Shown: positions 10,507 to 45,091, counted from the first letter of the stretch. The stretch is DNA of 64,000 nucleotides from an uncultured Chloroflexia bacterium (GCA_963773405.1 CAVZAQ010000013.1:19758-83757); one strand, 5' to 3'. Program-made: numbers and translations. Notes: generated by a model not told the origin, from the sequence alone.

Positions 10507-10656
10507 ATGCCGGATACGACGGCCGGACGCGCTGTCGCCTTGCTTGTTGCCGCCCTCGTGCTGGCTGTCGTAGTCATAGTGGTGTCGAACACCGTGGCTA
10601 CCCCGCAGACATACGTCTTCGATACTGCTCCCGAGCAGATCCTGCATTCGCCATGA
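10507..10656 (+). CDS. Small single-TM peptide (49 aa) translationally coupled to the DUF2075 gene
   Basis: ATG at 10507 preceded by AGGGGGA 9 nt upstream. Encodes MPDTTAGRAVALLVAALVLAVVVIVVSNTVATPQTYVFDTAPEQILHSP. Its TGA overlaps the ATG of the next gene (gccATGAag). Below the ORF-track length cutoff. Confidence 0.35.
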   Translation: MPDTTAGRAVALLVAALVLAVVVIVVSNTVATPQTYVFDTAPEQILHSP

Positions 10657-12527: not shown

Positions 12528-12540
12528 AGGGAGGAGCACA

Positions 12541-28500: not shown

Positions 28501-28661
28501 CTGGCCGGTGGTGGTCCCGTGGCCGTTGCCGGTTCCGTGGCCGTTGCCGGTTCCGTGGCCGTTGTGGCCGTTGCCGGTTCCGGGCCGTTGCCGGTTCCGT
28601 GGCCGTTGTGGCCGTTGGTCTTGGCGGCTGCGGCCGTGGTGGGGGTCGCGGAGCGTGCCAT
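25510..28661 (-). pseudogene. nrdJ: Class II (adenosylcobalamin-dependent) ribonucleotide reductase NrdJ, split over 4 reading frames by at least 3 single-base indels (near 28580, 28135, 26940); probably sequencing errors
   Basis: ORFs 28197..28661, 27682..28266, 26916..28136 and 25510..26901 (all -) align end-to-end with NrdJ. Recognisable segments: ...VASKYFRGTMGTPEREHSVKQMIDRVADTIADWGIKDAYFATDGDAA / FRDELKDILLKQRASFNSPVWFNVG...NPCSEYMYLDDSACNLASLNL... / ...VALGEKTGFRNGQLSVLAPTGTIAFMMDCDTTGVEPD...CSECGS...CYKCINCG. Confidence 0.8.
28516..28618 (-). repeat. 18-nt in-frame tandem repeat (~5 units) within the nrdJ 5' coding region, encoding (GHGTGN)n; one unit carries a 1-nt deletion
   Basis: Plus strand ccgttgccggttccgtgg units. 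The odd unit ggttccgggccg versus ggttccgtggccg in the others coincides with the first nrdJ frameshift. Confidence 0.6.
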
Positions 28662-28841
28662 CTCTCTTCAGTGCCCTCTGCCTCCGGGGGTCTGCCGCCC
28701 CGGCCTTGTCGATACGTCGCCTGCCGGCCGTTTCTGCGTCTCCCCGCGCCCTTCGCGGCCCTCCGCGGCCGCTCGCGGCCTTTCGGGGCCGGTTCGCGTC
28801 GCTTTGCGCCGTTTCGCGCCCCCGGTTGGGGCACAGTTCGC

Positions 28842-28857
28842 CCTACCCGCGGGTAGG
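28842..28857. promoter_or_regulatory. Perfect 16-bp palindrome CCTACCCGCGGGTAGG in the nrdJ leader
   Basis: Read directly; ~180 bp upstream of the nrdJ ATG; could be an operator or an RNA hairpin. Confidence 0.35.
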
Positions 28858-28989
28858 TTGGGGAGACCAGGGGCGCTGCCGGCGCCGACGGTTATGCGAG
28901 GCGTCGCTGCGGCCCTCATCGCCAGCCGCTCGACGCCGAAGTCAGGAGCGGTAGTGTAGGACGCGCCCACACCCGAGTCAAGCCGAAAA

Positions 28990-29038
28990 CCACAACATGT
29001 GGTGGTACCTTCGGGCAGGTGGCCACAACATGTCGGGG
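28990..29038. promoter_or_regulatory. Two tandem NrdR-box-like 16-bp palindromes (CCACAACATGTGGTGG and CCACAACATGTCGGGG) spaced 33 bp, upstream of nrdJ
   Basis: Both fit CAC-N8-GTG as in the NrdR box consensus acaCwAtATaTwGtgt. Tandem boxes ~3 helical turns apart are the typical NrdR site architecture. Confidence 0.45.
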
Positions 29039-29159
29039 GAGCGTAGGACAAATGTGGACGAAATGTGCATGAGCTGTGGACTCATGGTGGACGGGCGGAT
29101 AGGCGCCGGCCCCGGCCCCATGGCTGTTGCGCAGCGCAAGACTGGCTGCCACCTCCCAC

Positions 29160-29350
29160 CACTGTTACAGCCGATGTAACCCAATGTCGGCAGGAATGAC
29201 TCTGCAGGTCGGTTGTCGACGTGGTGTTGGCCGGTCGTAACGCAGCGTCGCGGATGGGGCGTCCGCGGGTAGTCGGCGGGTTGGCGGCGGTCGGCGGCGG
29301 GTCCCGGAGGCGCGTTCCCCGACGTTACGTTCCAGCCGGTCGAACATGGG
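29160..29350. repeat. Composite intergenic repeat element, copy E5 (three ~30-nt modules; terminal module CGACGTTACGTTCcagccggTCGAACAT)
   Basis: Modules at ~29160, ~29230 and ~29308, homologous to those at 30.9, 39.7, 41.7 and 44.9 kb. Confidence 0.55.
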
Positions 29351-29386
29351 GCGACGGTGGTTGCGGCGGGACGGCAGAATCGGGGC

Positions 29387-30013
29387 ATGCAAGCAGGGTG
29401 GCGGGGGCATCGGCTTCGGCCAGGCGCGACCGTCGCTGCGGTCGTGGCGCTGATGGCGGTCCCGATGCTGGCCGGATGTGGCCTGGGCAGCTCGGAGCGG
29501 GGCACCGCACCATCGGTGGATGCGTCCGCGGTGGCGACCCTGCGTGTCTCCAGCACGGCCTTCCGGGATGGCGCGAACATCCCGGCGACGTTCACGTGCG
29601 ACGCCAAGGACGCCGGAGCGGCGGTGCTCTCCCCCGCCCTGGCCTGGATAGGCGCACCGGCCACTGCGCACGCGATGGCCGTGGTGGTGATTGATCCCGA
29701 CGCGAGCAACTTCGTTCACTGGCTCGCGGCCAACGTCCCGCCGGGGAACGGAGGTTCGGGGTTCCTGGCGCAGGGCTCGTCTGGCAGCGAGGCGTCCGGC
29801 GTGGAGGGACGCAACTCCGCGGGAAAGAGCGGCTGGACGCCGCCGTGCCCGCCGTCGGGGGACAGGAAGCACCGCTACGTGGTGACGGTCTACGGGCTGA
29901 GCGAGCCACTCTCCGTGGAGGCGGGCTTCTCCCTGTCGGACCTGCGAGCGGCCATGGATGGCAAGGTCGTCGCCACGGGCACCATGACCGGCTTCTACGC
30001 GCGCACGACGTAA
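29387..30013 (+). CDS. YbhB/YbcL (PEBP/Raf-kinase-inhibitor-like) family lipoprotein
   Basis: From internal Met MQAGWRGHRL...VALMAVPMLAGCG (lipobox). PEBP motifs TFTCDAKDAGAAVLSPALAW...HRYVVTVYGL. Confidence 0.65.
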   Translation: MQAGWRGHRLRPGATVAAVVALMAVPMLAGCGLGSSERGTAPSVDASAVATLRVSSTAFRDGANIPATFTCDAKDAGAAVLSPALAWIGAPATAHAMAVVVIDPDASNFVHWLAANVPPGNGGSGFLAQGSSGSEASGVEGRNSAGKSGWTPPCPPSGDRKHRYVVTVYGLSEPLSVEAGFSLSDLRAAMDGKVVATGTMTGFYARTT

Positions 30014-30091
30014 GCAGCTGCGAAATCGGCGGCTGGGGGATCGGCGGCTGCGGGATCGGCTGCTGGGGGATCGGTCTATTGCGACATCGGT

Positions 30092-30766
30092 CTAGACCAG
30101 GGCAACCCCGTTCGCGCCCGGATCGCGTCCTTCGTGCAGGGCCGCCAGCACCGACCGTCCGTCCAGGGGCAGCTCGTCGCGGAGGAGCTCCCGGACGGTC
30201 GCCAGTGCTCGACGGTTGGCCGAGGTGTCGGGAAGGACCACGATGAACCGGGCGCCCGGCGGTCCGCCGTCTCGCCACTTGAGGTGCACGGCGCGGAGCT
30301 GGGCCTGCGCGTCTGTCAGGCGAGTGATGACCTCCACGCAGACGGTGACCCGGGTGCGGGGCTCGTGCAGAACCAGGTCGAAGGCGCGCAGGTCTCCGGA
30401 CCTGCGCAGCGGGACCTCGAGGGCGAGGCGCCAGGCAGGCGAGATGCGGTCGCGTAGGCGTCTTGTCACCGCCAGCTGGGCGACGTCCCGCATCGCCGAG
30501 CCGGCCGGGAAGACGCGGACCTGCAGCCGCAACCCCACGACCGCGGCGAGTCCCTCCAGGTCGGGCAGGGGCACGCCGCCGATTTTCCCGGTCTCGACGC
30601 GCGCGACGCGCTGGCGGGCCCAGCCCACCCGCGCAGCCACCTGCGCCTGCGTCATTCCCGCGGCGAGCCTGGCGCGGCGGATCTCCTCGCCGGCGTCCCG
30701 AAGGTGACGGGCCGCCGTCCGTTGCGCCTCGGTCACGCGCCGTACCCGCCCGGTCATGCGGTGCAT
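30092..30766 (-). CDS. XRE-family HTH transcriptional regulator with C-terminal uncharacterised domain
   Basis: Cro/C1-type HTH (LRDAGEEIRRARLAAGMTQAQVAARVGWARQRVARVETGK); ~130-aa C-terminal domain of unknown function. Confidence 0.55.
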   Translation of the reverse strand: MHRMTGRVRRVTEAQRTAARHLRDAGEEIRRARLAAGMTQAQVAARVGWARQRVARVETGKIGGVPLPDLEGLAAVVGLRLQVRVFPAGSAMRDVAQLAVTRRLRDRISPAWRLALEVPLRRSGDLRAFDLVLHEPRTRVTVCVEVITRLTDAQAQLRAVHLKWRDGGPPGARFIVVLPDTSANRRALATVRELLRDELPLDGRSVLAALHEGRDPGANGVALV

Positions 30767-30859
30767 CGTGCGCGCGGTTGGTTACCGGCGGCTTAAGGCG
30801 GGCTTGGTGCGGGTTTGGTGCGCCGGCTCAGTGGCGGGTCGGCGCGGCCTCAGTGGCGG

Positions 30860-31070
30860 TTCCGAGGCCGATGTTCGGGTGGGCCGGCGCTGGCTCGGTG
30901 GCGGGTCGGCGGCCGATGTTCGGGTGGGTCGAACGTAACGTCGCGGAGGGTGCCCTTTCGGGGCCGTTGCCGACGCCATGTTCGGGAGGGTCGAACGCTG
31001 CGTCGGGGATGAGGGGTCCGCGGGCTGTTCACCGACGTTGCGTTACAGCCGCTGTAACACGCAGCCGAGG
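30860..31070. repeat. Composite intergenic repeat element, copy E4 (modules cgATGTTCGggtgggTCGAACGTAACGTCGcgg, ccATGTTCGggagggTCGAACGctgCGTCGggg, inverted CGACGTTgCGTTAcagccgcTGTAACA), plus a ~45-nt local duplication upstream
   Basis: Read directly, 30860-31070; ggccgatgttcgggtggg occurs twice (30867, 30912). Confidence 0.55.
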
Positions 31071-31339
31071 AGGCCGGGGTGATCTGCCGAGGAGGCCGGG
31101 GCGATCTGCCGAGGAGGCCGGGGCGATCTGCCGAGGAGGCCGGGCGCCGGGGGGCCGCGCCGGAAGCGGAGGGCGCGAGGCCGAGGGTGCCGGGATCGCG
31201 GGGCTCGGGGCCCGGGCCGGGGCGGCGGGCTCGGGAGAGGCCGCGGACACTGGGGCGTCGGGGCTCGGAGCGCGGCGGGTCCTGAGCGTCCGGAGGGCCA
31301 CTGGTCCCAAACGACGATCCTTTCGGCCCGTTGCCCTAT

Positions 31340-31385
31340 CCGCATAGATGCTTAGAACATATAGCATACGAAGGCCTATAGATGG
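31340..31385. promoter_or_regulatory. AT-rich segment with imperfect inverted repeats (CATATAG...CTATAGATG) upstream of the arsR-like regulator and sulfur operon
   Basis: atagatgcttagaacatatagcatacgaaggcctatagatgg is about 40% GC in a 70% GC genome. Confidence 0.3.
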
Positions 31386-31585
31386 ACCAGGCATCGAAAA
31401 GGACTGCCGGAACGGCAAGGGAGGCGGGTTGACATGCAGAGCATCACGCGGCGACGGACCAGGTACCGCCGCCTCTTCTCATCGCCGGATTGTCTGTGCT
31501 GGCGGCTGGGCTCGCTCGCCCTGCGGCTGTCATCGCGGCGCTGAGTGACTGGACCGTTGGAACACCGAAGCCGGAGGAGCTGACC

Positions 31586-31975
31586 ATGCTGCGAGCATTG
31601 GAAGACATCTACGCCATCCAGGCGTCAATCCTCCGCACCCTCGGAAGCCCCCGCCGGCTGGAGATCATCCACGTCCTGGGCACAGGGCCGACGGAGGTTC
31701 ACCGCATCGCGGAGGAGCTGGGTGTCAGCCAGCCCACCGTCAGCCAGCACCTGGCCGCCCTCCGGGGCGCCGGCCTGGTCGACGCCGTCCGGGACGGCAG
31801 GAACGTCCGCTACGCGCTCACCGATCCGGGGATCCTGCAGGCCTGCGACCTGATGCGCGACGTCCTCTTCCGGCGTCTCGGCCGTCTCTCCAGCCTGGCC
31901 GCCACATTCGACACACCCCAGCGCCCTCGCCGGCGCACAGAGCGCGCACGCGCGCTGGAGGTTGCACACCGATGA
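31586..31975 (+). CDS. ArsR/SmtB family transcriptional regulator (sHdrR-like position)
   Basis: ATG with GGAGGA RBS. ...ILRTLGSPRRLEIIHVLGTGPTEVHRIAEELGVSQPTVSQHLAALRGAGLVDAVRDGRNVRYAL: ArsR winged helix. Confidence 0.75.
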   Translation: MLRALEDIYAIQASILRTLGSPRRLEIIHVLGTGPTEVHRIAEELGVSQPTVSQHLAALRGAGLVDAVRDGRNVRYALTDPGILQACDLMRDVLFRRLGRLSSLAATFDTPQRPRRRTERARALEVAHR

Positions 31976-32385
31976 GCGAATCCCTCTCCATCGTCCTCAG
32001 CTCGGGGACGGATGACAAGCTCCAATCCGCGGCGATCATGGCCGCGGGCGCCGCTGCCCTTGGGCAGAAGGTCAACATCCTGCTCCAGTTCTGGGCGCTC
32101 GACGCCTTCCGGTCCGATCGCATCGGCGCGGACCACGGCCTGATGCCGGAGGCGGGCGAGGCCGGCGCGGCCGCCGTCCGCGATCACACCCCACACGGGA
32201 GGCTCGAGTGGCAGGAGACCCTGCGCCAGGCGAAGGAGCTTGGCGAGGTGGAGATCCACGCCTGCACGAACTCCCTTGAGCTGCTTGGCATCGATGCCAT
32301 GGACCTCGACCCGATCGTGGACGGGGCCGGCGGCATCGCAACGTTCTTCCTGAAGGCCGAAGACGGCCCCATCGTCTTCATCTAA
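31972..32385 (+). CDS. DsrE/DsrF-like family sulfur-relay protein
   Basis: LSIVLSSGTDDKLQSAAIMAAGAAALGQKVNILLQFWALDAF...VEIHACTNSLELLGID: DsrE/YchN fold with conserved Cys. Confidence 0.6.
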   Translation: MSESLSIVLSSGTDDKLQSAAIMAAGAAALGQKVNILLQFWALDAFRSDRIGADHGLMPEAGEAGAAAVRDHTPHGRLEWQETLRQAKELGEVEIHACTNSLELLGIDAMDLDPIVDGAGGIATFFLKAEDGPIVFI

Positions 32386-32400
32386 GGAGTCGCACGAAAA

Positions 32401-32769
32401 ATGGCAGACCACGAGAAGCTCGTCTTCATGGTTACCCACGGACCCGAGCATCCGGAGCACGCGACGATCCCGTTCGTCATGGCCTGCGCGGCCCTGGCGT
32501 CCGATGTCGAAGTGGTCATGGGTTTCCAGGCTGATGGCGTCTGCATCGTCCGCGAGGGCGAGGCGGAGCACGTCGAGGCGAAGGCCTTCCCGCCCCTCAC
32601 CAAGCTCATCAACGACTTCCGCGAGCTGGGCGGAACCATGCTCGTCTGCGGGCCCTGCCTGAAGGGTCGCGAGATCGCAGAGACCGATCTTGTCGTCGGC
32701 GCCGAAGTGGTGGCCGCCGGACGGTTCATCGCCGAGATCACGTCGGCAACCAACGCCCTCGTCTACTAA
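32401..32769 (+). CDS. DsrE/DsrF-like family sulfur-relay protein
   Basis: KLVFMVTHGPEHPEHATIPFVMACAALASDVEVVMGFQADGV...MLVCGPCLKGREIA: DsrE-family with active-site Cys. Confidence 0.65.
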   Translation: MADHEKLVFMVTHGPEHPEHATIPFVMACAALASDVEVVMGFQADGVCIVREGEAEHVEAKAFPPLTKLINDFRELGGTMLVCGPCLKGREIAETDLVVGAEVVAAGRFIAEITSATNALVY

Positions 32770-32818
32770 CCCATCAACCATCCCGATCCGCCGTGCGGAT
32801 CGAATCAAAGGAGCCGAC

Positions 32819-33082
32819 ATGGACACCACCACCATCCAGCCGCTCGAAGAGATCACCGCCGCCAAGGTCATCGACGCCCGCGGCGCCGCCTGCCCGGGGC
32901 CCCTGCTGGAGGCCAAGAAGGGCATGGGCACCGTCGCCATCGGCGAGGTGATCGAGATCTGGTCCACCGATCCGGTGACCAAGACCGACATCGGCGCATG
33001 GTCCGGCAAGGTCGGGCACGAGTACCTGGGCGCCGTGCAGGACGCCGGCTACGACCGCGTCTTCGTGCGACGGATGAAGTAG
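32819..33082 (+). CDS. tusA: TusA-like sulfurtransferase
   Basis: From internal Met MDTTTIQPLEEITAAKVIDARGAACPGPLLEAKKGM...: CPxP active-site motif. Confidence 0.75.
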   Translation: MDTTTIQPLEEITAAKVIDARGAACPGPLLEAKKGMGTVAIGEVIEIWSTDPVTKTDIGAWSGKVGHEYLGAVQDAGYDRVFVRRMK

Positions 33083-33151
33083 GCGAACCGCCTGGATCAC
33101 GGGGCGCGGCTGCCGCGCCCCGGATCCGCCACCAAGGGAGTCGATGAACAG

Positions 33152-33601
33152 ATGAGCGCGCAGATAGTCGCCGAGGCTCCGGTGGCCCACACGGGCCCAC
33201 CGAGGATCCTGGTCTTCTCCACGAACAACATCAGCGACCCGGGGATCGACCTGGCGGGCAGCGCCCACATGCACTACTCCCCGGGCGTCAAGGTGATCAA
33301 CCTGCCGTGCACCAGCGGCATCCGCCCGTCGTGGATCCTCCACGCCCTGGAGACCGGCTTCGACGGCGTGTTCGTGGCCTCCGACGGCGACGAGTGCGCC
33401 TACCTGCCCGACTGCGGCAAGCGCTCCTCGCGGATCCTTGCCGAGGCCCAGGCGACGATGAAGGAGCGCGGCATCGACCCGAACCGGGTGCGCCTGGCCG
33501 CGATCTGCTCCGTCTGCTCGGAGCCGTTCACCAAGCACGTCACCCAGTTCTCAACCGCCCTGGCCGAGCTTGCGCCCGGCGACCACGAGGTGACCAGATG
33601 A
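33152..33601 (+). CDS. MvhD/FlpD-like (methyl-viologen-reducing hydrogenase delta subunit family) iron-sulfur protein
   Basis: ILVFSTNNISDPGIDLAGSAHMHYSPGVKVINLPCTSGIRPSWILHALETGFDGVFVASDGDECAYLPDCG: MvhD signature. Confidence 0.7.
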   Translation: MSAQIVAEAPVAHTGPPRILVFSTNNISDPGIDLAGSAHMHYSPGVKVINLPCTSGIRPSWILHALETGFDGVFVASDGDECAYLPDCGKRSSRILAEAQATMKERGIDPNRVRLAAICSVCSEPFTKHVTQFSTALAELAPGDHEVTR

Positions 33602-36382
33602 CCGAAGCGTGCGCGGTTCCGACCGCGAACAAGGTCGACTACGACGTCATGGTCGTGGGCAGCGGCATCGGCGGCATGGAGTCCGCCCTGAAGCTGGGCG
33701 ACATGGGCTACAAGGTCCTGCTGGTCGAGAAGGAAGCCAGTGTCGGCGGCAAGATGATCCTGCTGTCGAAGGTCTTCCCCACCCTCGACTGCGCCAGCTG
33801 CATCTCGACCCCCAAGATGGCGGCGACCATTCATCACCCGAACATCACCGCCCTGACCTACGCGCAGGTGGACGGCATCCGCAAGTCCGCCGACGGGCGC
33901 TTCCACGCTTCCGTGACCAAGAAGGCCCGGTTCGTGGACATCGACACCTGCACCGGCTGCCAGAAGTGCGAGACCGCCTGCACCGTCGCCATTCCCGACC
34001 AGTTCAACGCCGACCTGGTGGCGCGCCGCGCGGCGTACATCGCGTTCCCGCAGGCCGTGCCCAAGAAGGCGGTCATCGACCGCCAGGGAAGCTCGCCGTG
34101 CTCGTTCGCGTGCCCGGCCGGCATCCAGGCCCACGGCTACGTCTCCCTGATCCGATCAGGTGAGTACGAGAAGGCCTACGAGCTGGTGCTCGACGCCACG
34201 CCGCTGGTGGGCACCCTGGGACGCGCCTGCTACGCCCCGTGCGAGGGCGAATGCACCCGCGGATCGCTGGAGGGGACGCTCCCCATCCGGCGCCTCAAGC
34301 GCTTCATCTCCGATCAGCATGACGAGGCCGGCACAGGGCCGGGAATCGAGATCGCGCCGCCGAACGGCAAGCGTGTGGCCGTCGTGGGCTCCGGGCCCAC
34401 GGGTCTCACCGCCGCATGGCAGCTGGCCCGCCTGGGCTACGCGGTCCGGATCCTGGAGTCCGCGCCCGTCGCGGGCGGCTTCCTGCGGTTGGGCATCCCG
34501 TCCTACCGACTGCCCGAGTCCGTGGTGGAACGCGACATTGCCGAACCTGACCGATGTCGGCGTCGAGATCGTGACCGACACGGTCGTTCGTGACGTGACC
34601 GCACTCAAGGCCGAGGGCTACGACGCCGTGCTCGTCGCCACCGGAACCCACAAGTCCCTGGGCCTGGGCGTACCCGGCGAGGACCGCCTGGGCGTCCTGG
34701 GCGGCACCGACTTCCTGCGCAAGGTCAAGCTGGGGACGCCCATGGACCTCGCCGGCCGGACCGTCGTGGTCGTGGGCGGCGGCAACGTGGCCATGGACGC
34801 CGCACGGACCGCGCGCCGCCTGGGCGCCGAGTCCGTCACCGTCGCCTACCGGCGCGGACGGCACGAGATGCCCGCCAACCACGTTGAGGCCACCGACACC
34901 GAGGCCGAGGGCGTGCAGTTCGCCTTCCAGGTCGCCCCGGCCGAGGTGACCGGGGACGCGAACGGTGCGGTCAACGGACTGCGCTGCACGCGGATGCAGC
35001 TGGGCGAGCCGGATGCCTCCGGGCGTCGTCGCCCCGAGCCCATTCAGGGCAGCGAGCACGTCATCCCCTGCGACCTGGTGATCGCCGCCATCGGCATGAA
35101 GCCGGAGCTCTCCGCCTTTGGCGGTCAGCTGGCCACCAGCGACAACGGCCGCCTGCTGGCGGACACGGTGACCCGCCGCACGGAGCTCGAGTACGTGTTC
35201 GCCGCGGGCGACGCGGTGCACGGGCCCACCGACATCACCCGCGCCGTGGGCGAGGGACGCCGCGCGGCGCACATGATCGACCGCTGGCTCACCGGCGGGA
35301 CCATGGACGGCTTCGACGACCGGCTCCCGGTCGTGGACAAGCAGGCGGTCCTGGCGCGCCAGAAGGAATACAGCCTGCGACCGCCGACCCCGGACGCCAC
35401 GACCCTGGTCGCAGCGCCCACCGACTTCAGCGAGGTCGAGGCGGGGCTCACCGAGGCCGAGGCGCGTGCCGCGGCCGGGCGGTGCATCGACTGCGCGGTC
35501 TGCAGTGAATGCGGCGAGTGCGTGGCGGCCTGCCCGGTTGACGGCTGCATTGACCTCCACGCGCGCGACGAGACCTTCGAGGCCGATATCGGCGCCGTCG
35601 TGGTCTCGACCGGCTTCAAGCTCTTCCCCGCCGACCTCAAGCCGGAGTACGGCTTTGGTCGCTTCACCAACGTCATCACCGGGATGCAGATGGACCGCCT
35701 GCTGGCGCCCACCCGTCCCTTCAACACGATCCTGCGCCCGGGCGACGGCAAGGTCCCGGAGCGGATCGCCTACATCCTGTGCACCGGCTCGCGTGACGAG
35801 ACGGTGGGCAACCCCCTCTGCTCGCGGTTCTGCTGCATGTACTCCATCAAGCAGAACCAGCTCCTGATGGGCGCCCTGCCGCTGGCCGACGTGACCGTCC
35901 ACTACATGGACATCCGGGCCCCGGGCAAGCGCTACGACGAGTTCTACGAGCAGGCGAAGGCCATGGGCGCCACGTACGTCAAGGGCCGTGTCGCCGATGT
36001 CAGCGAGAAGCCGAACGGCGACCTCGTCCTCAAGTACGAGGACATCGAGAACGGCGGCAAGATCGTGGAGGCGGAGTACGACCTGGTCGTGCTGGCCGTG
36101 GGCGTCCAGCCCAACCACGATGCGGAGCAGCTGTTCGAGGTGGGCGAGCTGGGGCTCGACGAGTGGAGCTACGTCGGCGAGCCGGAGGAGGACCTCAACC
36201 CGGGCCAGACCAACATCCCCGGGGTGTTCGTGGCCGGGGCGGCCTCGGGAGCCAAGGACATCGCGGACTCGATCGTCCACGCGGGGGCCGCTGCGGCCCA
36301 GGTGGCCGCTCACCTCGAGCAGACGAAGGTCGAAGCCCCCGAGACGGAAGCACTCGAGACGATTGCGATGGTGACGGCATGA
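33598..36382 (+). CDS. hdrA: Large HdrA-like flavoprotein with inserted GltD-like NAD(P)H-binding domain (~928 aa), interrupted by one frameshift near 34540
   Basis: ORF 33307..34593 from MTEACAVP (VDYDVMVVGSGIGGMESALKLGDMGYKVLLVEKEASVGGKM...DCASCISTPKM; GltD-like VAVVGSGPTGLTAAWQLARLGYAVRILE) continues in ORF 34160..36382 (NLTDVGVEIVTDT...CIDCAVCSECGECVAACPVDGCI...ILCTGSRDETVGNPLCSRFCCMYSIKQNQ: HdrA 4Fe-4S and C-terminal signatures). Confidence 0.7.
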
Positions 36383-38127: not shown

Positions 38128-38402
38128 TGACCACGACCGCAACGCGCACCGGGCCCGCGCCGAACCCGAACCGGGACATCCGCGAGGTGATCCGCGAGGA
38201 GCCGGTGATGCGCGCCCGGATCCTGGCCGCCCTCGACGACGGGCCGCTCACGGTGCCGCAGATCGCCACCGCCATCAACGCCCCGACCCACGAGGTCGTC
38301 TACTGGGTGATGGGCATGCGTCGCTTCGGCTGGCTCGCAGAGGTCAAGGGCAGCGAAGACGACGGCTACTTCACCTACGAGCCGACCGGAAGGACCTCGT
38401 AA
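38127..38402 (+). CDS. Small winged-helix-like hypothetical protein
   Basis: 91 aa; RARILAALDDGPLTVPQIATAINAPTHEVVYWVMGMRRFGWL suggests a wHTH; overlaps neighbours by 1-4 nt. Confidence 0.4.
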   Translation: MTTTATRTGPAPNPNRDIREVIREEPVMRARILAALDDGPLTVPQIATAINAPTHEVVYWVMGMRRFGWLAEVKGSEDDGYFTYEPTGRTS

Positions 38403-39607
38403 TGACCGCAACGACCACCCCGGTGCCGGCCACCAGGATCGACCTGGGGCTCTATCCCGACATCAGGCGCTTCGGCGCGGCCGATGTCTCCGCCTGCTTC
38501 AGCTGCGGCACATGCACCGCCAGCTGTCCGCTCTCCGAGACCGATACCGCCTTCCCGCGCCGCGTGATCCGCTTCGCGCAGCTGGGCATGAAGGATGCGC
38601 TCCTGTCGTCGAAGGAGCTGTGGACCTGCTACGCCTGCGGCGAGTGCAGCGAGAGCTGCCCCATGTCCGCGGAGCCGTCCGAGTTCATGGCCGCCGCGCG
38701 CCGCTATGCGATCGCCAGCTACGACCACACGGGGCTCGCTCGCACCATGTACACCATGCCGGTGATCGGCACCGGGATCGCCCTGATCCTGGCCGCCGTC
38801 TTCGCGGCGTTCATGTACGCGTCGCACGGCCCGCAGGACGCCGCGACCCTGGCGCTCTTCGGGTTCATCCCCAACGAGCTGATCCACAGCATGGGCCTGA
38901 TCGTGATGGCCGTCGTGTTCCTGGCCGGCCTGGCCGGGATCGTGACCATGGGCCGCCGCCTGGCCCGGGTGGAGGGCGTGACGCTGCGCTCGACGCTTGG
39001 CAGCCGCGCGGCGCTGGCCCGCAGCGCTCGGGCGCTGTGGAGCGCCATCGGCATGGAGTCGCTGGGACAGGCTCGCTACCGCACGGACTGCGACGTGGAG
39101 AACGAGTCCGCCGTGGCGTGGTATCGGCGCCGCTGGTTCATCCACGCCATGACCGTCTGGGGCTTCCTTGGCCTGCTGGGCGCAACGATCGCCGACTACG
39201 GCCTGGAGATCATTGGCTGGAAGGCCACGGGCACCCCGGTGCCGATGTGGTACCCGGTCCGCCTGCTTGGCACCGTGGCGGGGATCGCGCTGATCTACGG
39301 GACGACCATGCTGATCATGGACCGCGTGCGGAAGTCGCACCGCTCGGTGCGGACCTCCTCGCCGGCGGACTGGACGCTGCTGGTCCTGCTCTGGATCACC
39401 GGGGTCACCGGCTTCGGGATCGAGCTGGCACTGTACCTGCCGCAGGCGCCGGCCTGGGGCTACTGGTTCTTCCTCTTCCACGTGGCGATTGCCATGGAGC
39501 TGGTCCTGCTGGCCCCGTTCATGAAGCTGGCCCACGCGGTCTACCGGCCGGTGGCGCTCTTCTTCTTCGCCCTGCGCAAGGAGGGCGCCGGATCGCCCGC
39601 GCAGTAA
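38402..39607 (+). CDS. Fusion of HdrC-like 2x[4Fe-4S] ferredoxin domain and NarI/HdrE-like membrane di-heme cytochrome b domain (QmoC-like)
   Basis: CFSCGTCTASCP and CYACGECSESCP cluster motifs, followed by 5-6 TM helices with conserved His (IHSMGL, FIHAMTVWGF, LFHVAIAMEL). Confidence 0.7.
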   Translation: MTATTTPVPATRIDLGLYPDIRRFGAADVSACFSCGTCTASCPLSETDTAFPRRVIRFAQLGMKDALLSSKELWTCYACGECSESCPMSAEPSEFMAAARRYAIASYDHTGLARTMYTMPVIGTGIALILAAVFAAFMYASHGPQDAATLALFGFIPNELIHSMGLIVMAVVFLAGLAGIVTMGRRLARVEGVTLRSTLGSRAALARSARALWSAIGMESLGQARYRTDCDVENESAVAWYRRRWFIHAMTVWGFLGLLGATIADYGLEIIGWKATGTPVPMWYPVRLLGTVAGIALIYGTTMLIMDRVRKSHRSVRTSSPADWTLLVLLWITGVTGFGIELALYLPQAPAWGYWFFLFHVAIAMELVLLAPFMKLAHAVYRPVALFFFALRKEGAGSPAQ

Positions 39608-39645
39608 CGACAGCCGAGCCGCCCGGCGGGGCCATCCGTCGGGCG

Positions 39646-39720
39646 GCCCCACGTCGGGCGGCCCCACGTCGGGCGGCCTCCGGGCCGGGGCCGGGGCCCG
39701 GGCCGGGGCAATGTTCGGGC
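39646..39720. repeat. GC-rich short tandem repeats (ccacgtcgggcggcc x2.5; gggccgg units) downstream of the sulfur operon
   Basis: Read directly. Confidence 0.4.
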
Positions 39721-39885
39721 GGCCGTAACGTAACGTCGCCCAAGCGGGCTGGTCCAGGGTTGGTACCGGGTCGTCCGGGCGGTCCAGCGCTCGTGGGTTA
39801 CGGCTGGTCGAACACAGCGTCGGTGAATCGGCCCCGGCAGGCCATCCGCCGACGATACGTTCGGGTGGCTCGAACATCCCGCCCG
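39700..39885. repeat. Composite intergenic repeat element, copy E3 (caATGTTCGggcggccGTAACGTAACGTCGccc; gGTTACGgctggTCGAACAcagCGTCG; inverted CGACGaTACGTTCGggtggcTCGAACAT)
   Basis: Read directly. Confidence 0.55.
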
Positions 39886-39946
39886 CTCCGGCCGCTCCGC
39901 CGCTCCGGTCGCTCCGGTCGCTCCGGTCGCTCCGGCCGCTCGCGGG
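39882..39946. repeat. Tandem repeat of 9-nt unit CGCTCCGGY (~7 copies)
   Basis: cccgctccggccgctccgccgctccggtcgctccggtcgctccggtcgctccggccgctcgcgg; intergenic, just upstream of the second padR. Confidence 0.55.
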
Positions 39947-39953
39947 GCTCGAT

Positions 39954-39976
39954 GAGTGTCCGCGCCCTATACACTC
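39954..39976. promoter_or_regulatory. Inverted repeat GAGTGT-N11-ACACTC upstream of padR; candidate operator
   Basis: gagtgtccgcgccctatacactc, 10 nt upstream of the ATG at 39986. Confidence 0.3.
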
Positions 39977-39985
39977 TCCGGGCAT

Positions 39986-40429
39986 ATGACTAAGCGTTCG
40001 CCCGGGCGCGACCCGATCGCATCCGGCCGGGACAAGCGCGGCACCCCCATCCACCATGGGTGGGCGACGCTCGGTGGCCGCCGCCGCTGGATGGAGCCCT
40101 TCATGCTGGTCCTCCTGGCGGAGGGATCGGCGCACGGGTACGCGCTGGTGGGGCAGCTGGAGGAGATGGGCGTGGCCACCGGCTCGCAGCTCGACTTCGG
40201 GCAGGTCTACCGCACGCTGCGCGACCTCGAGCGGGACGGCCTGGTGAGCTCCACCTGGTCGACCGAGCCGGCCGGGCCACAGCGTCGCGAGTACGAGCTG
40301 ACCGATGCCGGCTACGCCACCCTGGACGAATGGGCCGCGGTCATGCGCGAGCGCGCACGGCTGATGGCCGAGTTCGACGGGCGCTACCTGTCGGCTGTCG
40401 CCCGGCCCCCAAGGCGCTCCCGGAGCTAG
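39986..40429 (+). CDS. PadR family transcriptional regulator
   Basis: ...MEPFMLVLLAEGSAHGYALVGQLEEMGVATGSQLDFGQVYRTLRDLERDGLVSSTW...YELTDAG: PadR signature. Confidence 0.7.
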   Translation: MTKRSPGRDPIASGRDKRGTPIHHGWATLGGRRRWMEPFMLVLLAEGSAHGYALVGQLEEMGVATGSQLDFGQVYRTLRDLERDGLVSSTWSTEPAGPQRREYELTDAGYATLDEWAAVMRERARLMAEFDGRYLSAVARPPRRSRS

Positions 40430-40917
40430 ATCGGCTGAGCCATGGCGTGGTCCAGGGACTGCGCCAGCGCGTCGCGCTCCTCGGGCGAGAGGCTCCCCTC
40501 CAGCACGGCGAGGTAGTGCTCCTCCTCCGCGAGGTGCACCTTGTACATGGCGTGCAGCCGGTAGAGCGCGCGGCGCAGGCCCATGGCCTCGCCGGGGTCG
40601 AGGGTGCAGGCGATGACATTGGGCCGGTAGTCACCCAGCGTCCCGATCAGGCGCCGCAGCTCGCGGTGCTCGTGGCGCATGGGGATCATGGAGTGCCGGT
40701 TCTGAAGAAGCCGCTCCAGCTCGGGGTAGATGCTGCTCTCGACCGCGTCGATGTGCGGCAGCATCTGGTCGTGGATGAAGCGGTACTCGGCCTCGAAGCG
40801 CGCGGCGAACGCCTCCGGGCGGACCGTGTCGATGGTCTCCGCAAGGGCGGGCAGGGCGTCGATGTGGGGCATCATCAGCTCATGGTGATGCTGGGTCGTC
40901 TCGGGCAGGGACCGCAT
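40426..40917 (-). CDS. Hemerythrin HHE cation-binding domain protein
   Basis: H-rich helical motifs (MMPHIDALP..., HDQMLPHIDAVESSIYPELE, HEHRELRRLIG, LHAMYKVHLAEEEHY). Confidence 0.6.
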   Translation of the reverse strand: MRSLPETTQHHHELMMPHIDALPALAETIDTVRPEAFAARFEAEYRFIHDQMLPHIDAVESSIYPELERLLQNRHSMIPMRHEHRELRRLIGTLGDYRPNVIACTLDPGEAMGLRRALYRLHAMYKVHLAEEEHYLAVLEGSLSPEERDALAQSLDHAMAQPI

Positions 40918-41039
40918 GGTCGCGCTCAGCTCTCTATCCGTTGCCCGCTCCGCCGGCCGGTCCGGGCCTTGCTCGCAGCATCATCCGGGTTCGCGCGCGC
41001 CCGTAGGGCCATCCGGCCCTGATCGGGGGCCGCGCGGGC

Positions 41040-41085
41040 CGGGCCGTTGCGCCGCCGGCCGGGCCGGGCCGTTGCGCCGCCGCGG
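41040..41085. repeat. Direct repeat GGGCCGTTGCGCCGCCG x2 between the hemerythrin paralogs
   Basis: Read directly. Confidence 0.4.
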
Positions 41086-41092
41086 ACGAGGG

Positions 41093-41584
41093 TCAGAGGG
41101 GCTCTGCGATGGCGTGGTCGATGGCACGCGCCAGGGTCGAGCGCTCCTCCGGCGAGAGGTTGTGCTCCAGCACGCCGATGTAGTGCTCCTCCTCCGCGAG
41201 GTGCACCTTCAGGATCGCGTAGAGCCGGTACAGGACCCGGCGCAGCCCGGTCGCCTCCGCTGCGCTCAGACGACCGCCGGCCACCTGCTCGCGGTACTTG
41301 CCGAGCGAGCCGATGAGGCGGTGGATCTGCCGATGCTCGTGGCGCATGGGCAGCATGGAGTGGCGGTTCTGCATCAGCCGCTCGAGCTCGGGGTAGATGG
41401 TCTCCTCGATCCGCTCCACGTGCGGCACCAGCTCATCGACGATGAACGTGTACTCCGCCTCGAACAGCGGCGCATAGGCGCTCGTGGCACCCTCGGCGAC
41501 CATCTCGGCCAGCCTCCCCAGCGCGTCCACGTGGGGCAGGATCTGCTCGTGACGCTGGTGCTCGGTCTCGGGAAGCGACAGCAT
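41093..41584 (-). CDS. Hemerythrin HHE cation-binding domain protein (paralog)
   Basis: From internal Met MLSLPETEHQRHEQILPHVDALGRLAEMV...; ~55% identical to 40426..40917. Confidence 0.6.
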   Translation of the reverse strand: MLSLPETEHQRHEQILPHVDALGRLAEMVAEGATSAYAPLFEAEYTFIVDELVPHVERIEETIYPELERLMQNRHSMLPMRHEHRQIHRLIGSLGKYREQVAGGRLSAAEATGLRRVLYRLYAILKVHLAEEEHYIGVLEHNLSPEERSTLARAIDHAIAEPL

Positions 41585-41737
41585 GGCAATGCTCCTACAG
41601 CTACGGCGCGATCCGGGACGTTGGGCGACCTTCCCCACCCGCTGCACTCCGGGCTCCAAGGCTGCGCGCGCGCCTGCCGCCTCGCCAGTGCCACCCGGAC
41701 CGCCGCCGGGGGTCGCACCGGGCCACCACCGGCATTG

Positions 41738-41915
41738 CGCGGCGGATGTTCGGATGGTTGGAACGTAACGTCGGGGAACGCGGCCGCGAGGGCCGCCGGC
41801 AGCCAGCGCCCGACGCAATGTTCGGGTGGCTGTTACCGGGCATGCCCCCGGGTCGTGGAGTGCGGCCCGTCGGCGGTCCCCGGCGACGTTATGTTCGAGC
41901 AGGCGTAACCCAGGA
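41738..41915. repeat. Composite intergenic repeat element, copy E2 (ggATGTTCGgatggtTGGAACGTAACGTCGggg; caATGTTCGggtggcTGTTACcggg; inverted CGACGTTAtGTTCGAgcaggcGTAAC)
   Basis: Read directly. Confidence 0.55.
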
Positions 41916-43134
41916 ACGGGGTGTCAGCGGGCCGATGGCGCCGTGACAGAGGGACCAGCCGGGGAGGCTCCGCCCACGGCGGGTGCGACGGGGCCGGCGG
42001 GGCAACCAGCCGGAAGAGCATGGGCCCCAGGGTGGAGGACACCGCGGCGAGCAGGACGATGCTCGACTGCAGTGGGCGGTCGATGACGCCCAGCCGCACG
42101 CCCAGCTCGGCCACCGCGATGATCAGGCTCAGTCGGGCGGAGAGCAGGAGCCCCGCAGCCAGGACGGAGCGCATCGGCAGACCCAGCAGGCGCAGGGGGA
42201 GCGCCGCCGACGACCTTGATCGCCAGCGCCAGGGCGATGAGCGCCAACGTGATGCGGAGCGCCACGGGGTCGCCCAGCGCGGAGAGGTCGAAGCGGATCC
42301 CGACCCCAATGAAGAAGACCGGGATCAGGAACCCGTAGGCAAAGCCGGCGAGCTTCTGGTCCAGCGTTCCCCGGTACGGGAAGACGAGGGCGAAGACGGA
42401 TCCGGCCATGAAGGCGCCCAGGATCGGCTCGATCCCCAGCACCAGGGCCAAACCCACCAGGACCAGCATCAGGGCCAGCGTGGCGCGGATTCCGACCTCC
42501 TCCGGATCGTCCACGTCGAAGAGGCGCCGGAACGACTCCGGCCACCACCAGGCCATGCCGCCTCACCGCCATCAGCCCAAAGCCGATGACCGCGAAGAAG
42601 GCGGGGACCGCCAGCAGCGAGACCGCGGTTCCCGAGTCAGTGACGAGCGCCAGGCAGGTGACGGCGATCAGGGTCAGGAAGTCCGCGACCAGCGCGGATA
42701 CCAGGATCGCCTGGCCCAGCGCGGTGCCCATGTGGCGCGTGGTGCGCAGGGTGGGCACCACCATCCCGACGCTGGTGGTGGCCAGCACGAACATCGTGAA
42801 GAGGCCGTACCCGAGCAGCCAGACGGATCCGGCCGAGGCCGCCAGGGTGATCCCGAAGACGAGCAGGCCCACCGCCAGCTGGGCGCGCGCCCGTCGACCG
42901 AAGCCCGGCCAGGTTGATCTCGAAGCCCGAGAGGAACATGAGCAGGAAGAAGCCCAGCTCCCCGAGCTGGCTGATGAAGTCCGTCAGGCTGACGAGGTGC
43001 AGGACCGGGCCTACCGCGACCCCGAAGAGGATCTCCAGGACCGGCGCCGGAACGCCCACCCGGCGCGCGACGAGCGGCAGGGCGAACGCTGCAACCGCGA
43101 TGACGATGAGGGTCGCGGCGGCGCTGGAGTCCAC
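41833..43134 (-). pseudogene. Monovalent cation:proton antiporter (CPA/Kef-type Na+/H+ exchanger family), split over 4 frames by at least 3 frameshifts
   Basis: N-terminus MDSSAAATLIVIAVAAFALPLVARRVGVPAPVLEILFGVAVGPVLH...FLLMFLSGFEINLAG (ORF 42637..43134) continues in ORF 42129..42872 (LLVFGITLAASAGSVWLLGYGLFTMFVLATTSVGMVVPTLR...), then ORF 41924..42556 (LALMLVLVGLALVLGIEPILGAFMAGSVFAL...GFLIPVFFIGVGIRFDLSAL), then ORF 41833..42309 (LRLLGLPMRSVLAAGLLLSARLSLIIAVAELGV...). Confidence 0.65.
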
Positions 43135-43139
43135 GCGCC

Positions 43140-44746
43140 TAGCTGCCGCGCCCGGACGGCGGCGTCGTGCTCGTGGGGACGCCGGGGACGAGCAGGACCG
43201 AGCATGGGCGCGCGAAGGACGAGGTGACCGGCAATGCCCGGAGCCCAGACCCGCGGCGTCGTGGACGGCAGGCCCATGACCAGCAGGTCCGCGTTGGCCG
43301 CCTCTGCCCGCAGGATGCGCACGGGGTTCCCCTCGCGGACCATGCGCCGAAGGTGGATCCCCTGCACGGAAGCCGCCTCACGCATCCGCCCCAGGGCCAC
43401 GACCGCCTCCGCCCGGGCATCGCTGGCGGCCATGAACGCCGGCGGGCGGACCGCGATCCCGGTCAGCTGAGCCTTGGTCTGCACCGCAAGGTCAATGGCC
43501 GCCTGCGAGGCGGCCCGCCCGGCATGCGTCTCGCGCGCCGGGGCCAGGATGGTCGCGATAGCCGGCGCCCTCGCCCCGGACCAGGAGCACGGCGACGTGC
43601 TGGGCCAGCGCGGCGCGCAGGAGCCCCACCGCCGCGAATCGGCCGCCCGGAGGGGGCAGGACGGCAACCCCGGCATGAGCGGCGCGTGCCGCGGCGATCA
43701 CGGCATCCGCGGAGCCCGACTCCAGCGCCGCCTCCGTTACGGTGATCCCCTCCGCCCGCTCGGTCGCCGCCTGGATCAGGGCCCGGATCTCTCGCGTCTC
43801 CACGGAGGGCTCGGCGGACGCCTCCTCCGGGCCCGGCTCCCCGTCGTCGTCGACGTCGCCATTCCCGCGCGGAGACCTTGGCCTCCGGCTCGCCGTTGGG
43901 CCCCATGGGCCTGTGCAGCAGCAGCAACCCCTCCGCCGCGCTGTTGCGGACGAGGTGGATCGCCGCGGGCAGCAGGCGCTCCAGGTCCTCCGGCGAATGG
44001 AGGCGCACCGCAATGAGGCTGCCGAAATCGGCCGGGAATCGGGCCGTGGCGGTCGTGAAGGTGCGCACCACCATGGGGTAGTCCGCCGTGGCGCAGACCA
44101 CGGTCACCAGGTCCCCCTCCTCGAGGACCGTGGCGCCGTGCGGCACGATCAGCGCCCCCCGGCGGCTGATGGCGGCGATCAGCGTCCGCTCCAGCTCGAG
44201 CTCTCGCAGGGGGCGACCAACCAGCGGCGAGTCCGCCGCGATCCGGAACTCGATCGCCTGGGCCATCCCCTCCGCGAACGCGGCCGAGCTGACCCGGCGC
44301 GGCTCGAGCTGGATCTCCAGGCGACGCGCCGTCAGGCGCGCCGGGGAGAAGGCGACGAAGTCCTCGCTGCGGTACGCGTTGATGCTCTCCGGACCGGCAG
44401 CCACGGCCGCGATGCGCGGGACGCCCGCCGCCTTCGCGATCCGGCACACCTCCAGGTTGGCGCGGTCGTTGCCGATGGCGGCCACCACCGCATCGGCCCG
44501 GTCCAGGCCCGCCCGCTCGAGCACCACCCGGCTGGTGCCGTCGCCCAGCTCCAGGCGCGTCTCCCCCGCCGATGCCGCCGATGCCGCCGGCCGGCCCGAT
44601 CCATTGCCCGTTTCGCCGGAGCGCGCGTCGCGAAGCAGGTCGAGCCGTTCCTGGTCGTTGTCGACGACCGTGACCTGCCAGGCCTCCGAGAGTCCTCGCA
44701 ACAGATCGCGGGTGATGCCACCCGCCCCGACGACGATGAGCTGCAC
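43140..44746 (-). pseudogene. TrkA-N/TrkA-C (RCK) domain protein with two C-terminal universal stress protein (UspA) domains, split by at least 2 frameshifts
   Basis: MQLIVVGAGGITRDLLRGL...VVDND (Rossmann) ... TrkA-C (SPLVGRPLRELELERTLIAAISRRGALIVPHGATVLEEGDLVTVV), then Usp-like ...AEGLLLLH / (frame 2) ITVTEAALESGSADAVIAAARAAHAGVAVLPPPG...HVAVLLVRGE / (frame 3) AIDLAVQTKAQLTGIAV...ADLLVMGLPS...GHLVLRAPMLVLLVP. Sits directly upstream of the antiporter. Confidence 0.55.
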
Positions 44747-44859
44747 CGATCCTCCGACCCTGGGCGCGGTACCGGGGGGTTCCGGTTGGCGCGCATTATC
44801 CGGGACGGCCGGGCCGCGGCGCGCGGGGTGTCAGCGCCGGCCCGATACCGGGCATGGTC

Positions 44860-45020
44860 GGCCATGCCATGTTCGAGCAGCTGGAACGTAACGTCGCCCG
44901 TGGCGCCGCCCCGAGGGTCTTACCGACACGGTGTTCGACCCGCCGTGACGTACCGTCGCCAGAACAGCGGGAGACCGCCTCTCGCCGACGTTACGTTCGG
45001 GTGGGTGTAACAACGGGCGG
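44860..45020. repeat. Composite intergenic repeat element, copy E1 (ccATGTTCGagcagcTGGAACGTAACGTCGccc; gGTGTTCGAcccgccGTGACGTACCGTCGcc; inverted CGACGTTACGTTCGggtgggTGTAACAA)
   Basis: Read directly, between the divergent trkA-like and dipeptidase genes. Confidence 0.55.
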
Positions 45021-45091
45021 ATCCAGGTGGGGTTTGCCGCGAGATTCGTGCCGCCTGAAGAGGGCGCCATCGGCCTAGACTACGCGCGCCC

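Follow-up and report, generated by a model that had tools for sequence, protein, structure and literature searches.

What is the role of a composite repeat that occupies five intergenic loci of an uncultured Chloroflexia bacterium, and which protein might recognize it? The five repeats, termed E1 to E5, were analyzed in a stretch of 64,000 nucleotides (nt) (GCA_963773405.1, CAVZAQ010000013.1:19758-83757; G+C content 69.4%), referred to as the window, and all positions are those of the whole window. An initial annotation had considered mobile elements, transcript-stabilizing structures and protein-binding sites; it lacked the gene at 30092-30766 and the 62-bp phasing of the repeat modules, both of which are described here. 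This gene encodes a protein, P0121, in which a helix-turn-helix (HTH) domain is joined to a domain with a predicted PD-(D/E)XK nuclease fold. Comparison with relatives makes it probable that the elements serve this protein as cognate sites in duplex DNA, a core that is common to the two leading readings of their function, and among the options of the initial annotation the sequence evidence favors protein-binding sites. Labels such as L007 and L014 denote sequences from relatives that were compared with the window, and S1 to S5 denote orthologous element sites: upstream of nrdJ (S1), between the HTH gene and ArsR (S2), between QmoC and PadR (S3), 3' of the Na/H exchanger (S4) and between M19 and TrkA (S5).

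Architecture and helical phasing of the elements

The module from which the elements are built reads TGTTCG-N7-(C/G)(G/T)AAC-N4-CGTCG and is usually followed by G-N-GRA, with a conserved tail that reaches CGTCGG-N-GRA. With up to three mismatches, GTTCGN7CGAACGTAACGTCG matches the window 11 times compared with 0.00 times in shuffled sequences, and 10 of the 11 matches are located inside the five loci. AACGTAACGTCG (up to two mismatches) gave 13 matches, where 2.2 were expected. A weight-matrix scan identified 15 dyads within 29.1-45.1 kb and one weak match, in coding sequence (57820-57846), in the 48 kb of the window that remain. These counts bear out the five intergenic loci with one three-module architecture that had been annotated. 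In each window element the outer modules are inverted, with their tails facing inward. The canonical form, represented by E2, E5 and many copies in relatives, has a length of 143 nt and dyad centers 62+62 bp apart, and E1, E3 and E4 are lengthened by insertions of 42, 22 and 10+11 bp, respectively. Paralogous elements have modules in common, but not spacers. Because whole elements are pseudo-symmetric, their orientation by MAFFT is unreliable; they were oriented by end type (A, GGAACGTAACGTC; B, GTAACCCAAYGTC).

E1 (29163-29346) is located between nrdJ(-) and a PEBP gene(+), with modules at 29163-29189(+), 29224-29250(+, weak) and 29320-29346(-) and dyad spacings of 61 and 104 bp. Its ortholog in L007 has 143 nt, and the additional 42 bp of the window copy represent a 10-11-nt tandem repeat at 29265-29303. 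E2 (30917-31059), between the HTH-nuclease gene(-) and the ArsR operon(+), harbors modules at 30917-30943(+), 30971-31005 (bidirectional) and 31033-31059(-) with spacings of 62/62. A partial additional module at about 30871 belongs to a 45-nt tandem duplication (30836-30928(+), Tandem Repeats Finder, TRF) that copies the left edge of E2. E3 (39712-39876), with the end of the QmoC-like gene on one side and the PadR gene on the other, has modules at 39712-39738(+), 39796-39822(+) and 39850-39876(-) spaced 84/62, its additional 22 bp being an 11-nt repeat at 39745-39771. E4 (41747-41910), located immediately past the 3' end of the Na/H-exchanger gene(-) and upstream of a hemerythrin gene(-), has modules at 41747-41773(+), 41811-41837(-) and 41884-41910(-) spaced 72/73. 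E5 (44870-45012), between the TrkA-Usp gene(-) and the M19 dipeptidase gene(+), has modules at 44870-44896(+), 44924-44958 (bidirectional) and 44986-45012(-), again with spacings of 62/62. The middle module had been annotated as a degenerate direct copy of the first, but it is not simply that: in E2 and E5 it is bidirectional and forms a 35-nt palindrome (CGACG-N4-GTTCG-N7-CGAAC-N4-CGTCG), and in E4 it is reversed. The terminal inverted repeats, given as about 14-16 bp, are real at 12-14 bp, but they are merely the conserved module tails and the spacers are not complementary.

In ten loci the great majority of dyad centers are 62 (+/-1) bp apart, and the remaining values are 40, 60, 72, 73, 84 and 104 bp. 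Nine of ten exceptions are offset against the 62-bp spacing by multiples of 10.5 +/-1 bp, where each agreement has by rough estimate a chance of ~0.3 and the events are not all independent. This quantization at about 10.5n bp suggests that the dyads share one face of duplex DNA, 62 bp corresponding to about six helical turns. Tandem repeats within elements have periods of 10-11, as expected if the dyads must keep to one face of duplex DNA; repeats directly beside elements show periods of 6, 9, 15, 22 and 45 (TRF).

The inverted modules also raise the question of whether the elements act as structured RNA or single-stranded DNA, be it as a cis-regulatory leader, small RNA, terminator or stabilizer, or cruciform. 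A long rod fold is permitted by the inverted repeats (E2(+) folds at -75.8 kcal/mol, z-score -3.4), and E3 and E4 are located 3' of operons. However, no stem covariation was found among 67 unique module dyads. Conserved pairing is limited to the 3 bp of GTT/AAC, positions 5-15 pair in 40 and positions 6-14 in 27 of the 67 dyads, and left-half (CG, AC) and right-half (CG, GT, GG) variants combine independently (AC with GT was seen 5 times, 4.7 being expected). Of the internal GTTCG/CGAAC hairpin that had been proposed for each module, reliable complementarity is therefore limited to GTT/AAC. In 11 canonical elements complementarity about the center is confined to conserved module positions: within positions 16-27 and 117-128, 10 of the 12 pairs form in 8-11 of the 11 elements and the remaining two in 6 and 3 of them, whereas spacers pair at background level. 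Folding of the full elements was inconsistent, with structures that differ among copies and z-scores from -3.4 to -0.06. A comparison with Rfam yielded no match at gathering thresholds across the window, and at E<=1 just two chance-level miRNA matches over 28.9-45.3 kb. In addition, module types of other lineages lack an internal dyad, and indel quanta of ~10.5 bp suit duplex DNA rather than RNA. A role as a folded nucleic acid, including the transcript-stabilizing function initially considered, is thus very improbable.

The short GC-rich tandem repeats annotated beside the elements were recovered by TRF at 39879-39941 (9 nt x7.1), 39637-39678 (15 nt x2.8), 41035-41082 (25 nt x1.9) and 31064-31144 (22 nt x3.7). 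More generally, microsatellite-like GC-rich repeats occur at element edges and neighboring gene ends (30017-30074, period 15/30; 31064-31144, period 22; 39637-39709, periods 15 and 6; 39879-39941, period 9; 41027-41082, period 25), and these edge repeats explain most length differences among orthologous spacers.

The bracketed gene and its product

The gene of P0121 (30092-30766(-), 224 aa) is, together with the PEBP gene, bracketed by E1 and E2. The pairing of gene and repeats rests on six gene contexts in five lineages, one of which has two paralogs. In all six contexts a composite repeat specific to the lineage occurs in two copies, which bracket the HTH-nuclease gene. The window, L007 and L020 share the order E2, HTH-nuclease gene with PEBP gene, E1. 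In L014 the gene (1756-2421) is located between repeats at 1431-1657 and 2523-2749. The first paralog of L021 (48% identical; 4844-5500) is bracketed by repeats at 4657-4769 and 5559-5671, the downstream copy being positioned in a convergent spacer. The second paralog of L021 (37% identical over its full length) has modules of the form GGGCGCTCC-N13-GGCGATAG, a type without internal dyad, at 8385, 8445 and 8505 (spacing 60/60) and at 9317 and 9378 (spacing 61). The latter two are situated just upstream of nrdJ, and spacings of 60-62 thus recur in this context. L022 (42%) harbors CCTTGCGCGTGCCGGCGCTATCGACGGA modules on both sides of the gene in a housekeeping neighborhood, and L148 (44%) a 148-nt direct repeat, each copy of which contains inverted TTGCATCCGGTGGCGGCAACCAGCGGAG modules. 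The bracketing copies are inverted in the window but direct in L014, L021, L022 and L148. Conversely, L015 possesses ArsR, PadR and the operon, and both the partner gene and the modules are absent. This pairing of protein and repeat matched no known family. Genes for cyclic-di-GMP turnover (GGDEF/EAL) recur beside the HTH-nuclease gene or the cluster (L021 1933-4575, L147 7494-9869, L015 13991-16501).

P0121 contains a lambda-repressor-like HTH (HTH_31/HTH_3) at residues 26-80. Beyond this domain no family was found in Pfam, NCBIfam or PADLOC, and a sequence search of the PDB returned HTH proteins only. The AlphaFold2 model (pLDDT, the predicted per-residue confidence, 90.4) shows a C-terminal alpha/beta domain with the alpha-beta-beta-beta-alpha-beta core fold of PD-(D/E)XK nucleases, and Foldseek searches with this model gave additional matches to McrC, EndoMS, Bax1 and Can2. 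On this model, P0121 combines the lambda-repressor-like HTH with a PD-(D/E)XK nuclease-fold domain. Among 30 homologs, E117, D125, R127, D130, E145, R158 and K163 are invariant. D130 marks the start of beta-2 and E145 is located in beta-3, but the canonical lysine at +2 is replaced by a hydrophobic residue, giving E145-x-x-x-R149. In the alignment of the 30 homologs R149 is at least 90% conserved, and either this residue or the invariant K163 could substitute for the missing catalytic lysine. A search with the C-terminal domain among 1.84 billion representatives retrieved 656 clusters (50% identity) at E<=1e-3. Nearly all are ~217 aa long and have the domain at residues 85-216. The HTH-PD-(D/E)XK proteins are therefore a small, unnamed family of constant architecture.

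The predicted recognition helices of the partner proteins fall into classes that track those of the modules. RQ(R/K) occurs with GTT[CA][GC] dyads, SAA(H/T)IS with TTGC.. modules and AQSTLS with GGGCGCTCC..GGCGATAG, a correspondence that was noted post hoc in a small sample. It bears on the question of whether another protein binds the elements and the HTH-nuclease gene is a mere neighbor. Candidates would be a nucleoid-associated protein, gyrase or integration host factor (IHF), as at the bacterial interspersed mosaic elements (BIMEs) of E. coli, or a different regulator. The varying distances to promoters would fit such a binder, and helical phasing equally suits wrapping or architectural proteins. 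However, the repeat sequence changes with the HTH-nuclease paralog or lineage and always brackets the gene, and sites of a general architectural protein would be expected throughout the 64 kb, not in 16 kb only. Together with the agreement between recognition helices and modules, these points render a different binder unlikely. ArsR and PadR in particular are unlikely to bind the elements, because their genes retain separate conserved operator-like motifs of their own in genomes with and without elements; both were rejected as candidates since they occur with these motifs in genomes lacking modules. Among known operator types, the LexA/Cheo box has its halves in the wrong order, and the PadR ATGT-N8-ACAT, ArsR 12-2-12 and GlnR/PhoP direct-repeat patterns do not match in spacing or orientation.

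Conservation, turnover and possible function

The source organism resembles uncultured soil Chloroflexota; a syntenic metagenome-assembled genome (MAG), MFD02416.bin.1.124, is labeled 'uncultured Chloroflexia', and protein matches are named Limnocylindria or Limnocylindrales. An exact-module scan of 185,579 GTDB species genomes, representatives that do not include the source genome, gave 13 matches compared with about 17 estimated by chance. Two of these are real (L007, L009), both from MFD02416.bin.1.124. Scanning metagenomes with GTTCGN8GAACN4CGTCN{27,53}GACGN4GTT returned at least 120 single matches and no multi-module match among those listed. Their lengths are mostly multiples of 3, with 87 nt recurring; they look coding or like chance and are uninformative. 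Plasmid records showed no DNA match to the elements and a protein match at the level of the HTH alone. As the weight matrix built from modules of the window and L014 is too narrow for the diverged L016, L017, L021, L022 and L148, repeat finding was used for these sequences. Within the window the elements are essentially confined to the 16-kb span in which they had been annotated, but the family is present in related genomes, and a single module occurs in the hydrogenase cluster of the related MAG. This perfectly symmetric module (L009 2692-2718) is located at the 3' end of the hydrogenase maturation protease gene (HycI) of a [NiFe]-hydrogenase cluster, on another contig of MFD02416.bin.1.124 and outside the stress-gene cluster.

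All five sites, S1-S5, are occupied in the window. L007 has elements at S1 and S2, and L014 at S1-S3 in a four-dyad form with a spacing of 62-84-62. L019, L020 and L147 are occupied at S1-S4, several as tandem pairs, with two tandem copies at S3 in L020 and L147. L143 contains elements at S3 and S4, and L144 and L145 at S4 and S5 with a remnant at S3. L146, the closest relative, has an element at S5 and, at S3, a single module beside the PadR promoter; its S4 is empty. Only degenerate modules were found in L016 and L017, none of them at S3, and L015 has none at all. The number of modules per element in relatives ranges from one to four. E2 and its L007 ortholog are 97% identical in their cores and 87% in their spacers, and the flanking intergenic DNA cannot be aligned; for E5 and its L146 ortholog the corresponding values are 87% and 46%. 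S1-S3 are occupied even in genomes whose partner protein is just 65-82% identical. The conservation of cores alongside drifting spacers points to purifying selection on the modules. Judged from these alignments, the elements are old and positionally conserved, with modules apparently under selection, yet whole units have been gained, lost and duplicated.

Several rearrangements were observed at or near the elements. A 1.2-kb Na_Ca_ex gene (L146 7891-9056) is present between the Na/H-exchanger and hemerythrin genes of L146, L143 and L144 and absent from the window and L147; E4 is positioned exactly at that junction (window 41919-41925). At the position of E1, L019 carries a cassette of three S26/S24 peptidase-like genes (2282-5307, 3-4 kb) that is flanked by near-identical direct element copies, c on one side and d+e in tandem on the other. 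L017 carries the same cassette with degenerate flanks. L019 also has duplicated nrdJ fragments, which may reflect assembly ambiguity, and the PEBP gene is relocated in L014.

Do these features identify a mobile element? The initial annotation had compared the repeats to miniature inverted-repeat transposable elements (MITEs) or to repetitive extragenic palindromes (REPs) and BIMEs. This comparison holds in form only, namely for the inverted modules, the tandem copies and the presence or absence between relatives. It fails on dispersal (five loci in 16 kb), on a related transposase or RAYT and on the sharing of modules alone among paralogs, and target-site duplications were not apparent. A classical MITE or REP family, which a DDE or Y1 transposase from another locus would mobilize in trans, could account for the 12-14-bp terminal inverted repeats, the small size and the intergenic location, and an IS4/5 transposase gene is present in the window at 14079-14882. 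However, the ends of this IS4/5 element are unrelated and without module-like sequence. No Y1_Tnp domain, RAYT or integrase was found among the window open reading frames (ORFs) scanned. Alignment of filled and empty S3 and S4 revealed no target-site duplication, with junctions blurred by divergence and tandem repeats. Given also the lack of dispersed copies and of a plasmid-record match, this explanation is already largely refuted.

In the reading that we prefer, and hold with moderate confidence on the basis of sequence comparison, the elements are double-stranded binding arrays of P0121 with a regulatory or architectural role exerted through looped complexes. We infer that P0121 binds the modules as an oligomer with a regulatory outcome, as follows. 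HTH dimers would dock on each dyad, and the C-terminal domains would link adjacent dimers, perhaps also arrays far apart, in a nucleoprotein complex that is looped or wrapped. Most probably this would lead to autoregulation, and the transcription units of a stress/persistence cluster would be controlled jointly or insulated. These units would comprise nrdJ, the PEBP gene, the gene of P0121 itself, ArsR-DsrE-TusA-Qmo, PadR, the hemerythrins, Na/H exchanger-TrkA-Usp and the M19 dipeptidase; the hydrogenase cluster of a relative may also belong to this set. This role is favored because of the phasing of the dyads, the selection on modules, positional conservation and low copy number. The coherent set of stress genes and the sites with single modules, beside the PadR promoter in L146 and in the [NiFe]-hydrogenase cluster in L009, add to this, as do the precedents of SinR, whose sites read GTTCTYT (PMC3163267), and of Xre-RES, where the Xre complex can bind two sites within a promoter (PMC12204516).

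Several observations weigh against a plain regulatory array. The elements are positioned between ~60 and ~390 bp from promoter-like sequences and none of them covers one, and some copies reside in convergent, promoterless spacers (S4 of both L143 and L144; the copies on the downstream side of the gene in L021 and L022). The invariant acidic residues of the C-terminal domain resemble those of an active nuclease and would be needless in a plain repressor. The phasing statistic was obtained post hoc on a small sample, and 10-11-nt tandem repeats make up several of the insertions. Relatives with 82-93% nucleotide identity over these blocks differ in their occupancy of S3-S5, with whole elements duplicated in tandem, and L017 possesses the partner gene (76% identical) but only degenerate modules.

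The main alternative, which we consider less likely, is a system of the REPIN-RAYT or recombination-site kind, in which the HTH-PD-(D/E)XK protein is a site-specific nuclease and the elements are its substrates. The protein would duplicate, move or homogenize the elements or recombine DNA there; cassettes of the island would be gained, lost and shuffled, and regulation would be secondary. Such a system would explain the PD-(D/E)XK fold with invariant E117, D130 and E145, the bracketing of the gene by its own repeat type in every context, convergent spacers included, the convergent inverted pairs of modules and the polymorphic occupancy with whole elements in tandem. It would also explain derived features that many copies within a genome have in common (CGTCC tails in ERZ25039495, CGCAC halves in L014) and the position of elements at rearrangement junctions, as for the L019 cassette, the Na_Ca_ex indel and the relocated PEBP gene. 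However, neither a target-site duplication nor a clean empty-site junction was found in the comparison of relatives, copies are very few and restricted to one cluster, and the canonical (D/E)xK lysine is missing. Helical phasing has no obvious role in transposition, and the orientation of the bracketing copies differs by lineage. Moreover, the same five sites are occupied across genera while the spacers have diverged, which indicates old, vertically inherited copies under selection rather than recent transposition. It is possible but doubtful that the 143-nt elements are cleavage or recombination sites of a restriction-endonuclease-fold enzyme, which by analogy with REPIN-RAYT would constitute a previously unrecognized protein-repeat partnership.

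Gene neighborhood and relation to known systems

The gene context was derived from Pfam annotation. Three of the five elements are located in divergent promoter regions. The operon beside E2, on the + strand, encodes ArsR-DsrE-DsrE-MvhD-HdrA-like-QmoC-like proteins, to which relatives add TusA; of the two hemerythrin genes, the second has E4 upstream. The nrdJ gene (25510-29051, -), which encodes class II ribonucleotide reductase, is split into four ORFs (25510-26901, 26916-28136, 28197-28661 and 28668-29051), and the TrkA-Usp, Na/H-exchanger and M19 dipeptidase genes are likewise frameshifted in the window. As these genes are intact in relatives, the frameshifts are probably errors of long-read assembly. 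In L017, nrdJ contains an intein with a LAGLIDADG domain. Upstream of nrdJ a promoter-like TTGACT-17-TACACT is present at 28981-28953(-), and repeated CCACA..TGTGG boxes (28953-29060), which we take to resemble NrdR boxes, are kept in L007, L017 and L021. The PadR promoter (about 39955-39990) harbors an inverted repeat, GAGTGT-N11-ACACTC, overlapping a -10-like hexamer TATACA. In five genomes, with or without elements, this repeat hardly varies, and it probably represents the operator of PadR itself. L016 and L017 retain an AT-rich ATAGATG...CTATAGATGG motif that in the window (31343-31480) is located upstream of the ArsR operon, and a small conserved ORF starting at ATG 31434 precedes the ArsR start (ATG 31587). 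Genes for a Schlafen-group-3-like helicase (10404-12527), a zinc-ribbon protein (12472-13176) and a LigD primase-polymerase (370-1452), as well as the IS4/5 DDE transposase gene (14079-14882(-)), the sole transposase gene of the window, have no apparent relation to the elements. The base composition of the window gave no island signal.

How do the elements compare with known systems? In REPIN-RAYT, REP doublets occur with a single-copy Y1 transposase (PMC3337134). The present system resembles it in having short modules in inverted pairs, a partner gene flanked by its own repeat type, vertical persistence, tandem clusters and a repeat sequence specific to each paralog or lineage. It differs in the partner, which has an HTH and a PD-(D/E)XK fold instead of an HUH/Y1 transposase, and the relation is thus analogous, not homologous. 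There are about five loci per genome in one gene cluster instead of tens to hundreds of dispersed copies, and the modules form no stable hairpins, lack a 5' GTAG and have helically phased dyads. In enterobacteria, BIMEs are built from REPs of alternating orientation and are bound by IHF or gyrase. They are likewise composites of inverted short repeats, intergenic and sometimes tandem, and serve as protein-binding platforms, a role that is putative here. There is no sequence relation to BIMEs, however, and few copies, a regional distribution and a dedicated lineage-specific partner gene set the present elements apart.

Operator arrays of Cro/CI-type repressors, such as OR and OL of lambda, offer a second comparison. 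As in XRE and Cro-CI arrays, 17-bp dyads (GTTC-N9-GAAC), three per element, would suit an HTH dimer. Sites occur in multiple copies and several orientations with the regulator encoded beside them, and cooperative, oligomer-mediated binding is part of the model proposed. In contrast to such arrays, the sites are 62 bp apart instead of adjacent, and they are positioned upstream of core promoters or in convergent spacers. The putative oligomerization or effector domain adopts a nuclease-like fold in which acidic residues are conserved, and the elements are discrete 143-nt units that are duplicated and lost whole. Restriction enzymes of the PD-(D/E)XK type that loop DNA between two sites (types IIF, IIE and IIS, for example SfiI and FokI) similarly combine a separate DNA-recognition part with a nuclease domain that must pair, need two sites and depend on helical phase at short spacing. 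Unlike these enzymes, the present gene has no methyltransferase nearby, and its putative sites are located in the host's own chromosome and conserved. Integron attC sites and CALIN also have imperfect palindromes of ~60-140 bp that bound gene cassettes, resembling the L019 cassette between direct copies. An attC identity was rejected: ACGTAAC does not fit RYYYAAC, the order within a module is GTT...AAC and no GTTRRRY/RYYYAAC core exists in the right order, the spacers are not complementary, and no integrase (IntI) was found among the ORFs scanned. Moreover, the 'cassettes' are multigene and of mixed orientation with promoters of their own, and there is no sign of single-strand folding.

If the pairing is real, it would provide a DNA target and a testable activity for an uncharacterized family of constant architecture from abundant uncultured soil Chloroflexota. 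The elements are sequence-defined, helically phased multi-site arrays and could be used for studying cooperative looping by an HTH protein with a nuclease-fold domain. Should the nuclease domain be inactive, the system would be an ordinary regulon, though an unusual one whose operator architecture is conspicuous. An active domain would represent a second, mechanistically unrelated route to a repeat-protein symbiosis of the REPIN-RAYT type. If the elements were cleavage or recombination sites, uncultured Chloroflexota would possess a site-specific DNA-rearrangement or selfish-element system of a new class, and units of the stress/persistence island (nrdJ, hemerythrins, Usp, Qmo, hydrogenase) would be duplicated, lost or exchanged at them. 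A real pairing would also place a common layer of control or rearrangement over genes typical of dormancy and energy limitation, which include class II ribonucleotide reductase, hemerythrins, Usp, Qmo/Hdr-like proteins and hydrogenase.

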